DNA of 64,000 nucleotides, taken from assembly GCA_025465135.1 (NCBI GenBank), contig JAODNA010000084.1, positions 2,599 through 66,598 of the forward strand, read 5' to 3'. Below the pieces are notes generated by a model that was not told the origin of the DNA, searched no databases, and saw nothing but the letters and a program-made list of their open reading frames with translations. Source of the DNA: Frankiales bacterium (GTDB lineage Bacteria; Actinomycetota; Actinomycetes; Mycobacteriales; SCTD01). The translations under genes were made by a program, and so were the position numbers. Shown in pieces: positions 11,725 through 13,780 of this stretch. Each line of letters begins with the position of its first letter. The stretch's first letter is position 1.

Positions 11725-12027
11725 TCACTTCTGCGAGCCGACGATGCTGATCCAGTTCTTGTGGTCGAAGATCTCGTCATCGCCACGGTCGTAGCGCAGC
11801 AGGTCGGGCAGCTCGAAGGTCTCCTGCACCCAGCGCCAGTCGATCCGCTTGGACAGGTAGGCCACCCAGCCGCCTTGACTCGGTGCGAAGAGCTCGCCCT
11901 TCGGACCCGGGTGCGCGATGGGGTTGCCGTGGTCGACGAGGGCCTGCACGAGCGGGATGAGGTGCGTGTAGGGCCGGTGCGGGTCCGCCGGGTCGGCTTC
12001 GATGCGCCTTCGCTCGGTCATCCGCAT
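11725..12027 (-). CDS. Small hypothetical protein, candidate immunity protein for the upstream toxin
   Basis: 100 aa with no signal peptide. Its ATG lies within the last codons of the toxin gene (atgcggatga, 10-nt overlap), which implies translational coupling. No family recognised. Confidence 0.55.
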   Translation of the reverse strand: MRMTERRRIEADPADPHRPYTHLIPLVQALVDHGNPIAHPGPKGELFAPSQGGWVAYLSKRIDWRWVQETFELPDLLRYDRGDDEIFDHKNWISIVGSQK

Positions 12028-13493
12028 CCCTCCTGTCGGGTCATGACGGACCCCGCCAGTGTCGCGCCCCCGACCGTCGCTCCTCGCGCGGCCGGCACCA
12101 GGTGCAGCGTCGAGAGCCCCTTCGGCCCGATCAGGGCGTCGAGGTTGGTCATCTCCACGACCGTCGGCTCGCCGATGAAGCCCTCGGCGATGAGCGAGTC
12201 GATGAGGTCGGGCAGGAAGTACTGCGGGAGCCCACCGGCGCCGAACTTCACGTTGGCCCCCGCGATGGACTCACCGACCGGCAGCGGCTTCTTCACCTCG
12301 TAGGTGTTGAGGTGGCTGCGGTAGCGCGCGACGCCGTCGACCGGGTCCTTGCGCGACGCGACCTGCAGCCCCTCGTTGTAGCGCCGGGCATCGGTCCCGA
12401 CCTCCTCGACGGCCTCGGGCGTCGCGGCGAACCGCCCTTCACCCGGCGCGCCCACGCTGAACGTCTCGCCCGGCCGCAGGATCCTGTCGCGCCAGCGGTC
12501 CACGCCGCTGTAAGGACGCTTGCCCTGGAACTCCAGCACCTCTTCCGCGGGACTGGCGAACCGGGACTCGAGCAGCGCTGCCTCCTCCTCACACAGATCG
12601 GCGGCCATGGCGGCAGCGCGCACGCCACGCGTCGCGAGCTCTTCGGCGACCTCCGCGCCGTGGGCCGCCCGGCCCGCTGCCACGCCCGCTTCGCCGGCGC
12701 CCGCCGTGGCCACAGCGAGGAGCAGGTCGGGGACGAGGTGCCCGAGCGCGCGCGCCGGGTCGTGCGCCCAGGTGTCCCAGTCGAGAACGGCCTTGCCGAG
12801 CTCCTTCGGGTGCTCGACGCCGTACACGACGCCCTTGCCGAGGTTCTCGGCGTTGTCGACGAAGCCCTCGGGGTCGATGAGCGCGTAGGTCGGCGAGAGC
12901 CTGAAGGAGAGCTCGGCGAGCCCCCACGTCGCTTCTCCCGCGCCGGCGAGGAACGAGCCGACGGCATGGACCGCCTTGCTGAGCAGGCCCGGCTCGTGCG
13001 GCGCGCCGTGCCGGGCGTCGTCCAGCACGGAAGCTGCCCGCCGGGCGGCGGCATCGACGCGCTCCCGGGCTCCGCGCAGCAGCTGCTCGGCCGCACCCCG
13101 TTCGTCGGCGCCCGGGTCGTGCAGGGACCGGGTCTGCGCCGCTTGCGCGTGCCAGCGCGCGGTCGCCTGCTCGGCGTCTGCGTAGCGCAGGGCAGCCGCC
13201 GCTGCGTCCGCCTGGGCGTCGCGCAGCACCCGGGCGTAGTCGCTCAGGCACCTCGCGGCCCGCGCGAAGGCGGACTGCCCGCGCTCGAGCTTGTCGGGGA
13301 CCTGGCCGATCGCCTTCCGAAAGGCGTCGCCCGCCGGGCCCACCCACGCGCCGGTGTCGATGCGACGCAGGGCGCGCACGGCGTCGCACGCACCCCCGGC
13401 GTACCGCGCGTACTCACGGGCCAGCCACTCGACCTGCGCCGGGTCGCCGGGTACGAGAGACGCCGCGGAGGCGGTCGCGGAGAGCCCGCTCAT
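12018..13493 (-). CDS. Putative T7SS-type polymorphic toxin: WXG/LXG-like N-terminal domain fused to a TNT (DUF4237)-like C-terminal domain
   Basis: N-terminus LVPGDPAQVEWLA...IDTGAWVGPAGDAFRKAIG...LSDYARVLRDAQ (helical W-x-G domain). C-terminus LRPGETFSVGAPGEGRFAATP...YEVKKPLPVGESIAGANVKFGAGGLPQYFLPDLIDSLIAEGFI resembles the TNT NAD+ glycohydrolase consensus. ATG 13493 overlaps the upstream stop (ATGA). The rest of the 994-aa track ORF is antisense to the esterase gene. Confidence 0.7.
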   Translation of the reverse strand: MSGLSATASAASLVPGDPAQVEWLAREYARYAGGACDAVRALRRIDTGAWVGPAGDAFRKAIGQVPDKLERGQSAFARAARCLSDYARVLRDAQADAAAAALRYADAEQATARWHAQAAQTRSLHDPGADERGAAEQLLRGARERVDAAARRAASVLDDARHGAPHEPGLLSKAVHAVGSFLAGAGEATWGLAELSFRLSPTYALIDPEGFVDNAENLGKGVVYGVEHPKELGKAVLDWDTWAHDPARALGHLVPDLLLAVATAGAGEAGVAAGRAAHGAEVAEELATRGVRAAAMAADLCEEEAALLESRFASPAEEVLEFQGKRPYSGVDRWRDRILRPGETFSVGAPGEGRFAATPEAVEEVGTDARRYNEGLQVASRKDPVDGVARYRSHLNTYEVKKPLPVGESIAGANVKFGAGGLPQYFLPDLIDSLIAEGFIGEPTVVEMTNLDALIGPKGLSTLHLVPAARGATVGGATLAGSVMTRQEGCG

Positions 13494-13780
13494 GGCCGGC
13501 AGGCCTGTCCGATGGCGCGGTCGGTGCCCTCGTACGCCGCGGCGGCCTGGCCCAGCATCCGGGCGAGTGTGCTCGCGTCGTCGACGACGAGACCGAGGCC
13601 GTAGGACCAGGTGTGCCGGAAGTCGCTCAGCGCGGCCGCGAGCCGGGCAGAGCCGCCGGCCTCGGCCGCGTCGGACAGAGACCGGCTGCCGCGATGCACC
13701 TCGCGGGCGACCGCCGTGGCGTCGTCCAGTGCCCGGGCCGTCGCTGCCAGAGCCCCGGGGTCTGCCTCGATGTGACTCAC
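13490..13780 (-). CDS. EspC/DUF2580-like small helical protein (type VII secretion target family)
   Basis: 96 aa starting at GTG 13780: VSHIEADPGALAATARALDDATAVAREV...AAAYEGTDRAIG. This is the typical pattern of the ESX-secretion-associated small-protein family. It is the first gene of the operon. Confidence 0.6.
   Translation of the reverse strand: MSHIEADPGALAATARALDDATAVAREVHRGSRSLSDAAEAGGSARLAAALSDFRHTWSYGLGLVVDDASTLARMLGQAAAAYEGTDRAIGQACRP

Follow-up and report, generated by a model that had tools for sequence, protein, structure and literature searches.

Do three genes that overlap one another on the minus strand of a soil actinobacterium encode a secreted toxin together with the proteins that export and restrain it? 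The question is raised by a locus within a 64,000-nucleotide stretch of contig JAODNA010000084.1 (Frankiales bacterium), hereafter the window, where an original prediction had proposed an EspC-like protein (gene 1), a WXG-domain protein ending like the tuberculosis necrotizing toxin, TNT (gene 2), and a small candidate immunity protein (gene 3). Our analysis supports this interpretation as a whole, with refinements concerning the toxin domain, gene 1 and the start of gene 3: the three genes probably form an actinobacterial polymorphic toxin cassette of the kind associated with type VII secretion systems (T7SS), consisting of an export partner, an NAD+ glycohydrolase (NADase) toxin and an immunity protein.

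The C-terminal domain of gene 2

The C-terminal domain of gene 2 is predicted, from homology and from its modelled fold, to be an NAD(P)+ glycohydrolase with a TNT-like palm fold, belonging to the Rhs1-CT subgroup. A phmmer search of PDB sequences returned a single match, 6XTD chain A (E 1.2e-7, aa 321-429 of gene 2), and the family profile matched the same chain with E 2e-19, with no match to 4QLP among PDB sequences. The 6XTD structure shows the C-terminal toxin domain of Rhs1 from Serratia marcescens Db10 bound to the immunity protein RhsI1; Rhs1-CT was shown to be an NAD(P)+ glycohydrolase with a TNT-like palm fold, and a subgroup 'Tne3' was proposed for it (PMC10539506). In the AlphaFold2 model of gene 2 the region is a confident alpha/beta domain (predicted local distance difference test, pLDDT, 87-95), and Foldseek matched the model, with a probability of 1.00 each, to Rhs1-CT (6xtd_A; E 5.8e-9, TM 0.81, root mean square deviation 2.5 A, 28% identity), Tne2 (6b12_A, E 1.8e-4), Tse6 (4zv0_A, E 2.9e-4) and the Aspergillus fumigatus NADase, AfNADase (6ygf_B, E 4.9e-4). 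All 11 matches with E <= 1.5e-3 were NAD+ glycohydrolases, namely Rhs1-CT, Tne2, Tse6 and eight AfNADase chains.

Toxicity of Rhs1-CT is lost on alanine substitution of F1386, R1418 or Q1452 (PMC10539506), and the printed alignment, with Rhs1 numbers obtained by an offset of chain + 1318, places F355, R392 and Q424 of gene 2 at these positions (Table 1). F355 and R392 are invariant in a 35-sequence alignment, and Q424 is present in all but two of the 35 relatives. The original prediction had set the C-terminus beside the TNT consensus (...FGAGGLPQYFLPD... against ...GQPGGGxQY.LP...), and this comparison indicated the right active-site strand. The parallel with TNT stands at the level of fold, with the profile and structure matches to Rhs1-CT behind it, but the score lies under the Pfam cut-off, and membership of the Pfam TNT family was rejected for that reason. 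The two peptides quoted for gene 2 are both present, GAWVGPAGDAFRK at aa 48-60 and YEVKKPLPVG...AEGFI at aa 398-440.

This toxin domain is also found in Firmicutes, in a plasmid protein of Bacillus mycoides that has a pre-toxin TG (PT-TG) domain and is preceded by a WXG100 gene, and as short standalone proteins of a Ruminococcus phage and an Agathobacter plasmid. Downstream of the toxin domain these firmicute copies have a different family of ~127-139-aa proteins, unrelated to gene 3, and the one member tested gave no PDB sequence match, RhsI1 included. Gene 3-type immunity was tested for in the firmicute copies and proved not to be the case.

Co-variation of the toxin domain with the downstream gene

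A search of 5.8 billion proteins yielded 69 homologues of gene 2, in which the first ~265 residues are common and the C-termini diverge, and 140 further relatives were found in species-representative genomes. According to precomputed Pfam annotation, the C-termini of the homologues include TNT, papain-fold glutamine deamidase, ADP-ribosyl exotoxin and Tox-REase-2 domains, and that of one homologue was recognised as RelA/SpoT-type synthetase-like by reading its sequence. Since a shared carrier is combined with interchangeable C-terminal domains, gene 2 has the architecture of a polymorphic toxin.

For a survey of such loci, 80 were fetched from species-representative genomes, and the toxin ORF (open reading frame) and its neighbours were called in 78. 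In 72 of the 78, an upstream ORF with 60 aa or more stopped beside the toxin start, and a downstream ORF was likewise present in 72, a 4-nt overlap of toxin and downstream gene being the commonest arrangement (38 of 72). The last 150 toxin residues and, separately, the downstream proteins were clustered, and the two partitions were compared. Eleven toxin-domain clusters were found on the one carrier, at least eight of them with two or more loci, and their agreement with the downstream-gene clusters was high (adjusted Rand index 0.896, 70 loci), a value reached by 0 of 2000 permutations. A hidden Markov model (HMM) of gene 3 matched 16 of the 17 other loci with the toxin-domain type of gene 2, as well as two loci of the same type disguised by frameshifts, and it matched no locus with another toxin-domain type. 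Both marks of a polymorphic toxin system in the sense of Zhang et al. 2012, interchangeable toxin domains and a co-varying downstream gene, are therefore present. We regard the co-variation as the signature of cognate immunity and infer from it that gene 3 would neutralise the toxin domain of gene 2; the proposal of gene 3 as a candidate immunity gene is strengthened by it.

The three-gene unit is retained in the syntenic metagenome-assembled genomes (MAGs) L001, L002 and L004, and also where the surrounding genes are quite different, as in Blastococcus sp. TF02-09 and further MAGs (L003, L006, L007), and the gene 3 homologues of these relocated loci were recognised with E 5e-29 to 2e-9. The nearest relatives, with 75-77% identity, come from uncultured Actinomycetota; among named organisms with the same toxin-domain type Blastococcus is nearest (49%), and the carrier domain is abundant in Nocardioides. 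Two loci with other toxin domains, L008 (TNT) and L009 (RelA/SpoT-like), have downstream proteins unrelated to gene 3. At L009:7689-8717 there are two tandem paralogous downstream genes, 74% identical, and at L008:7874-8557 (Georgenia faecalis) a second, standalone TNT-domain gene follows the immunity gene. Both the duplicated downstream gene and the extra TNT gene are features typical of conflict systems.

The carrier of gene 2 and its proposed upstream partner

The N-terminal part of gene 2 matches the Pfam 'putative T7SS secretion signal domain' (PF21725) over aa 4-168 with 72 bits (E 9.4e-20), well past the cut-off of 27, and this domain is precomputed on nearly all gene 2 homologues. The original prediction had described a helical W-x-G domain here, which agrees with our results: W50, V51 and G52 are each invariant in 35 of 35 full-length relatives, and in the AlphaFold2 model (mean pLDDT 75.8) the N-terminal domain consists of long helices with pLDDT up to 96. 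Foldseek related this part to PPE41 of the PE25/PPE41 pair (2g38_B, E 0.015, probability 1.00).

Behind the secretion domain lies a central module that shows the highest conservation in the family (mean majority frequency 0.72-0.76), the secretion and toxin domains being less conserved. No Pfam model covers it, its C-terminal end reads GHLVPDLLLAVATAG / ...DWDTWAHDPARALGHLVPDLLLAVATAG / DPARALGHLVPDLLLAVATAG, and a pattern taken from it, DPARALGHL, was the search pattern used to retrieve the family. AlphaFold2 renders the module as helical with moderate confidence (pLDDT 55-67). A transmembrane segment was considered for it but found no support, as the maximum Kyte-Doolittle hydropathy (KD19) is only 1.38, below the usual threshold. 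The central Gly/Ala linker of the original prediction follows, disordered in the model (aa 264-288, pLDDT below 50), and homology among gene 2 relatives stops at this linker where the toxin domains differ.

Gene 1 homologues stand directly upstream of the toxin gene in all contexts examined, including those with TNT or RelA/SpoT-like toxin domains, and the upstream ORFs fall into one homology cluster in 71 of 72 loci regardless of the toxin domain. Since they accompany the toxin whatever its toxin domain, gene 1 travels with the carrier domain and not with the toxin domain. Its YxxxD/E motif is kept in the relatives, with Y83 in 34 of 35 and D or E at position 87 in 35 of 35. With WxG on gene 2 and YxxxD/E on gene 1, the two proteins show the motif combination of T7SS substrate pairs (EsxA/B, PE/PPE), which suggests a PE/PPE-like composite secretion signal.

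The description of gene 1 as EspC-like can be kept only in part. Among its 35 relatives, 19 match EspC at E < 0.01 (best 7.8e-6) and 8 match WXG100, and the best PDB match of the family profile is ESAT-6 (E 0.018), aligned end to end (residues 9-91); but the window protein itself stays under the Pfam cut-offs, not only for EspC but also for WXG100 (PF06013, 14.9 bits against 27.3) and EspB_PE. We consider the resemblance to EspC/WXG100 borderline and to hold at the superfamily level, so that 'WXG100-superfamily partner' would be a safer label than 'EspC family member'. A marginal match of gene 1 to JetD in PADLOC (E 0.0098, 13.4 bits) was taken as noise, and NCBIfam models gave nothing of use.

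Reading frames and gene boundaries

The window has a G+C content of ~72%, and 35 ORFs of at least 60 aa are found in the 6 kb around the locus. The three overlapping minus-strand genes of the original prediction are all present as ORFs, and three kinds of evidence agree on them: third-position GC (GC3) in the proposed frames is 0.87, 0.91 and 0.91 for genes 1, 2 and 3, the high-GC3 frame changing precisely at both overlaps; an independent GC3-based gene caller recovered exactly these genes; and the arrangement recurs in other genomes. The ATGA between genes 1 and 2 is seen in the sequence as described. The second overlap had been given as 10 nt (12018-12027) with a gene 3 of 100 aa, and both are revised here, to 4 nt (12018-12021) and 98 aa. 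The start was placed at 12021 because this ATG forms an ATGA overlap with the gene 2 stop, lies 7 nt 3′ of the GGAGG core of an AGGAGGG Shine-Dalgarno sequence, and corresponds to the residue at which gene 3 homologues start (MTER/MSER; MTERRRIE). ATG 12027 is probably not the real start.

The composite ORF of 994 aa (12018-15002), which was said to hide the operon, is a genuine open frame and does conceal it. Its GC3 goes down to 0.61-0.69 upstream of 13493, and it runs antisense to an esterase gene at 13881-14831 (Abhydrolase_3, 264 bits); it is therefore an artefact of scarce stop codons at 72% GC. A promoter/terminator consensus scan of 11500-14000 gave zero sites, a result that is uninformative at 74% GC.

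Table 1. Positions of the three genes, their parts and related loci, with the residues of gene 2 equivalent to those of Rhs1-CT (window positions unless a locus is named).
Feature	Position	Strand	Detail	Basis
Gene 1	13490-13780	minus	GTG start 13780, TGA stop 13490, 96 aa	
Gene 2	12018-13493	minus	ATG start 13493, TGA stop 12018, 491 aa	
Gene 3	11725-12021	minus	revised ATG start 12021, TGA stop 11725, 98 aa	
ATGA overlap, gene 1 stop/gene 2 start	13490-13493	minus		read from sequence
ATGA overlap, gene 2 stop/revised gene 3 start	12018-12021	minus		read from sequence; homologue starts
AGGAGGG Shine-Dalgarno of gene 3	12028-12034	minus	within gene 2 3′ end	sequence
YEGTD (YxxxD/E motif)	13520-13534	minus	gene 1 aa 83-87	conservation in relatives
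T7SS_signal domain	12990-13484	minus	gene 2 aa 4-168, helical, PPE-like	Pfam PF21725
WVG (WxG motif)	13338-13346	minus	gene 2 aa 50-52	conservation
Central module	12699-12998	minus	gene 2 aa 166-265	most conserved family stretch
Gly/Ala-rich linker	12630-12704	minus	gene 2 aa 264-288	disorder in model
Predicted toxin domain	12159-12551	minus	gene 2 aa 315-445	Rhs1-CT/'Tne3' subgroup homology and fold
Key residue F355 of gene 2	12429-12431	minus	Rhs1-CT Phe1386	alignment to Rhs1-CT
Key residue R392 of gene 2	12318-12320	minus	Rhs1-CT Arg1418	alignment to Rhs1-CT
Key residue Q424 of gene 2	12222-12224	minus	Rhs1-CT Gln1452	alignment to Rhs1-CT
Q323 of gene 2			Rhs1-CT Gln1354	alignment
Y328 of gene 2			Rhs1-CT Tyr1359	alignment
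D332 of gene 2			Rhs1-CT Asp1363	alignment
Q377 of gene 2			Rhs1-CT Gln1408	alignment
V378 of gene 2			Rhs1-CT Val1409	alignment
R381 of gene 2			Rhs1-CT His1412 (residue differs)	alignment
Deletion site in L010	L010:4380-4620		MAG Actinomycetota BP_342, JAWWOH010000116.1	syntenic relative
Firmicute toxin-domain loci	L090:1609-4055, L091:1898-2885, L092:170-994			same NADase domain

The family of gene 3

Gene 3 was said to belong to no recognisable family, and this holds: it has no match in Pfam, NCBIfam, PADLOC or PDB sequences, and none of 49 diverse members of its family matched Pfam, Imm families included. A word-indexed search gave 25 close relatives, and a profile search of 1.84 billion representatives extended the family to 129 clusters at E <= 1e-3, with members mostly of ~90-110 aa and a few having two or three tandem copies per protein. 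The AlphaFold2 model is confident (pLDDT 94.7, pTM 0.87) and runs through a helix, a beta-hairpin, a second helix and three further strands; Foldseek found no fold neighbour for it in PDB (best E 1.6) or among the BFVD viral predicted structures (best E 0.29).

The gene 3 profile also matched DARPins (E down to 1e-5), but these matches sum a short motif over repeats and no stretch passes alone, and an ankyrin-repeat assignment was rejected since the AlphaFold2 model is not ankyrin. The motif behind the misleading matches, HLIPLVQALVDHGNP (HLxPLVxxLxxxGN, ~22 residues) at aa ~18-33 of gene 3, imitates the second helix and turn of an ankyrin repeat. Two more remote relatives of gene 3, L093 and L094, lie on short contigs. 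In one of them (L094:2-1870, Logan contig, 51% GC) the gene 3 relative is found two genes downstream of a large toxin-like protein ending ...LLPGGGSQVFIPKV / GGGSQVFIP, which hints at an orphan immunity gene belonging to a toxin locus from outside the actinobacteria.

Comparison with known systems

Rhs1-CT/RhsI1 of S. marcescens Db10 has a homologous toxin domain, of which Q1354, Y1359, D1363, F1386, Q1408, V1409, R1418 and Q1452 are conserved here, and its immunity gene lies directly downstream, as here. The differences are that Rhs1 belongs to type VI secretion and is housed in an Rhs shell in a proteobacterium, whereas gene 2 has a T7SS_signal/WxG carrier in an actinobacterium, and that RhsI1 has 163 aa as against the 98 aa of gene 3, the two being unrelated in sequence and predicted fold.

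In gene order the cassette resembles the phage-encoded ESX-secreted toxins (PEST) of mycobacterial prophages (PMC10654092), in which a ~100-aa WXG100-like protein comes first, then a polymorphic toxin that has a WXG domain at its N-terminus, and lastly an immunity protein. For PEST1/2 a PE/PPE-like heterodimer (2G38) was predicted, and among the PEST the immunity protein varies together with the toxin domain; experiments in M. smegmatis showed toxicity when the immunity gene was missing, and its loss prevents transformation; the authors leave the target of the cassette unresolved and name prophage-mediated defence among its possible roles (PMC10654092). Unlike the PEST, the cassette described here lies among chromosomal housekeeping genes, outside any recognisable prophage, its host is an uncultured soil actinobacterium, and its toxin domain is identifiable as an NADase. 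M. tuberculosis CpnT-TNT/IFT with EsxE-EsxF is an actinobacterial T7SS-dependent NAD+ glycohydrolase of the TNT-like fold, which has genes for small Esx-type partners upstream and a gene for an immunity factor downstream. It differs from the present cassette in a longer N-terminal domain that forms a two-WXG outer-membrane channel, in having two Esx partners, in targeting macrophages, and in an IFT unrelated to gene 3; gene 2 for its part falls short of Pfam TNT (15 vs 27 bits).

Firmicute LXG toxins such as TelB/TipB of Streptococcus intermedius, with their Lap targeting factors (T7SSb), share with the cassette a helical targeting domain, small helical partners upstream, a C-terminal NADase, a downstream immunity gene and, if our reading is right, a role in interbacterial antagonism, but they differ in the LXG family of the N-terminus and in the T7SSb subtype, and no sequence relationship exists outside the toxin fold. 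Actinobacterial T7SS polymorphic toxins headed by WXG/LXG domains, with variable toxin domains and adjacent immunity genes, were catalogued by Zhang et al. 2012 (PMC3482391), and the T7SS-associated toxin AaEAS of Amycolatopsis, reported in 2025, has a targeting factor encoded upstream and a small ORF downstream (PMC12691689). The Rhs1-CT-type NADase subgroup on this carrier is described in neither the catalogue nor the AaEAS report.

Proposed mechanism and alternative interpretations

We propose that genes 1-3 would be co-transcribed and translationally coupled via the two ATGA overlaps. The product of gene 1, helical and of ~100 aa, would pair with the PPE-like T7SS_signal domain of gene 2, and the pair would act as a bipartite signal for a T7SS encoded elsewhere in the genome, like PE/PPE and EsxB/EsxA. 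The C-terminal ~130-aa domain would be the payload behind the disordered linker and, judging by its homologues, may deplete NAD+ and NADP+, so that the recipient is killed or arrested. In the producer cytoplasm gene 3 would bind the toxin domain and block its active site, as its co-variation suggests. Competing soil bacteria would be the likeliest targets; interbacterial antagonism is favoured because of the toxin polymorphism, the immunity duplications, the soil origin and the antibacterial nature of the nearest characterised relatives.

Several results weigh against this picture. Gene 1 reached 17.6 bits (E 0.005) with Pfam EspC PF10824, under the cut-off of 23.5, and the C-terminus of gene 2 reached 15 bits (E 0.034, aa 393-440) with Pfam TNT PF14021, under the cut-off of 27. 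Two relatives, P0014 and P0021, have Glu for the catalytic Gln424 (GGLRE vs GGLPQ/GGLRQ). Gene 3 has no sequence or fold match to the known NADase immunity proteins in chains of 6XTD, 6B12, 4ZV0 and 4QLP, and hence is regarded as unrelated to RhsI1, Tsi6, Tni2 and IFT. At the syntenic locus L010, gene 3 is cut to ATG-ACC-GAG-TGA (M-T-E-stop) by a clean ~336-nt deletion, and the toxin ORF beside it, 75% identical to gene 2, looks intact with its catalytic residues. EccB/C/D/E and mycosin were not found among the 43 of 60 called window genes that were scanned, which include every product of at least 330 aa; the cognate secretion machine is therefore assumed. Finally, the sequence is present only in soil metagenome DNA runs, none of them a transcript run.

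With secretion and enzymology unchanged, the toxin might be aimed at eukaryotes (amoebae, fungi or hosts) like CpnT/TNT, with gene 3 only for self-protection like IFT. TNT and the fungal AfNADase have the same fold, CpnT is an actinobacterial T7SS-dependent NADase with Esx partners and an immunity factor (PMC10654092), and the PEST authors' reserve about the target of such cassettes (PMC10654092) leaves room for this view, which we nevertheless consider unlikely given that the source is a soil metagenome, that Rhs1-CT, Tne2 and Tse6, its closest relatives to have been characterised, act against bacteria, and that heavy polymorphism, the duplicated immunity gene of L009 and the extra TNT gene of L008 follow the pattern of interbacterial conflict (PMC3482391). 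It is quite unlikely, in our judgement, that the C-terminal domain uses NAD+ otherwise, by ADP-ribosylating a protein or nucleic acid or by making a cyclic or signalling product. Many ADP-ribosyltransferases have Glu as their catalytic residue, so that Glu in place of the catalytic Gln in two relatives would fit such chemistry, and a fold alone does not give activity. The Rhs1-CT authors also leave the identity of the nucleophile open, but the significant structural neighbours are all demonstrated NAD(P)+ glycohydrolases (PMC10539506), and the essential residues of Rhs1-CT are kept in gene 2.

A reading without secretion would make the locus a toxin-antitoxin or abortive infection system, in which NAD+ is depleted on phage attack, gene 3 is the antitoxin and gene 1 a regulator. 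NAD+ depletion is a common strategy of abortive infection. This reading would also accommodate the T7SS genes not found nearby in the scanned part of the window, the short proteins of a Ruminococcus phage and an Agathobacter plasmid in which the toxin domain stands alone, and the prophage-mediated defence considered for the PEST (PMC10654092). Against it, none of the PADLOC defence models matches gene 2 or gene 3 and the match of gene 1 is marginal; ~300 conserved residues (T7SS_signal and central module), the WxG motif and a YxxxD/E partner would have no role in a cytoplasmic pair; and the architecture corresponds to exported toxins of the polymorphic kind, which together make this reading very unlikely. 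The chance that genes 1-3 are accidental frames in high-GC DNA, the real gene being the 994-aa ORF or an antisense ORF, appears next to negligible: long spurious ORFs do abound at this base composition, but codon-position GC fits the three frames, hundreds of homologues share conserved boundaries, the structure models of genes 2 and 3 are confident, and in its upstream half the 994-aa ORF lies antisense to a well-supported esterase gene.

Novelty and significance

For the exported toxin cassette that we favour, the type is already known and current understanding of it is unchanged; the pairing of an Rhs1-CT-type toxin with a gene 3 antidote is not known. New are the Rhs1-CT-type NADase on this carrier, the unannotated gene 3 family without a structural neighbour, and the conserved central module. 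An NADase domain delivered by type VI secretion in Serratia (Rhs1-CT) is now linked to a type VII-type carrier in soil actinobacteria, a case of toxin-domain exchange across secretion systems and phyla, and a predicted ~100-aa immunity family absent from database annotation, with 129 representative clusters, is brought to light. One toxin subgroup is accompanied by at least three unrelated families in the downstream immunity position, namely RhsI1, gene 3 and the ~130-aa firmicute family, which therefore makes a good case for convergent toxin inhibition. The locus also shows how composite ORFs in high-GC DNA conceal such cassettes, and ATGA coupling, WxG with YxxxD/E and the DPARALGHLVPD central motif are offered as annotation rules.

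More tentatively, and with considerable doubt on our part, gene 3 could be a new structural class of NADase inhibitor and the central module a delivery or cell-entry device, together amounting to a widespread chromosomal T7SSa-dependent killing system of soil Actinomycetota. If that is true, such a system would span soil Actinomycetota such as Nocardioides and Geodermatophilaceae relatives. To our knowledge, experiments have demonstrated T7SS-mediated bacterial antagonism mainly in Firmicutes, not in Actinomycetota.

Genomic setting and other features of the window

The scanned window genes are ordinary chromosomal ones. They encode MurB, an EamA transporter, a BNR-repeat protein, the esterase, S15 and M23 peptidases, an aldo-keto reductase, a flavin monooxygenase, SpoIIE-type phosphatases, a GGDEF-EAL protein, RecQ, DnaX, a class A penicillin-binding protein, two WhiB proteins, aspartate-semialdehyde dehydrogenase and a Ser/Thr kinase. 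There are no phage genes among them and no compositional anomaly in the window, and a tblastn search of 50,697 phage records gave no mycobacteriophage relative. Because the neighbours are ordinary and the cassette occupies the same position in related, syntenic MAGs, we regard it as a stably inherited chromosomal cassette of the lineage.

Elsewhere in the window, four matches to the c-di-GMP-II-GAG riboswitch aptamer (RF03169) lie on the plus strand at 31206-31323, 31350-31463, 32793-32917 and 32946-33060, scoring 50-63 bits, above the gathering score. They form two tandem pairs, the first followed by a stretch with uncertain gene calls (31485-32478) and the second just upstream of a plus-strand ORF of 535 aa (33107-34714) with no Pfam match. 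The SRP RNA at 34958-35056 (+) is directly upstream of dnaX (35039-36991), the WhiB-family genes at 59035-59331 and 61596-61886 (+) lie on either side of two ArsA/ParA-like ATPase genes, and three tRNA genes are found at 27774, 34773 and 54969.

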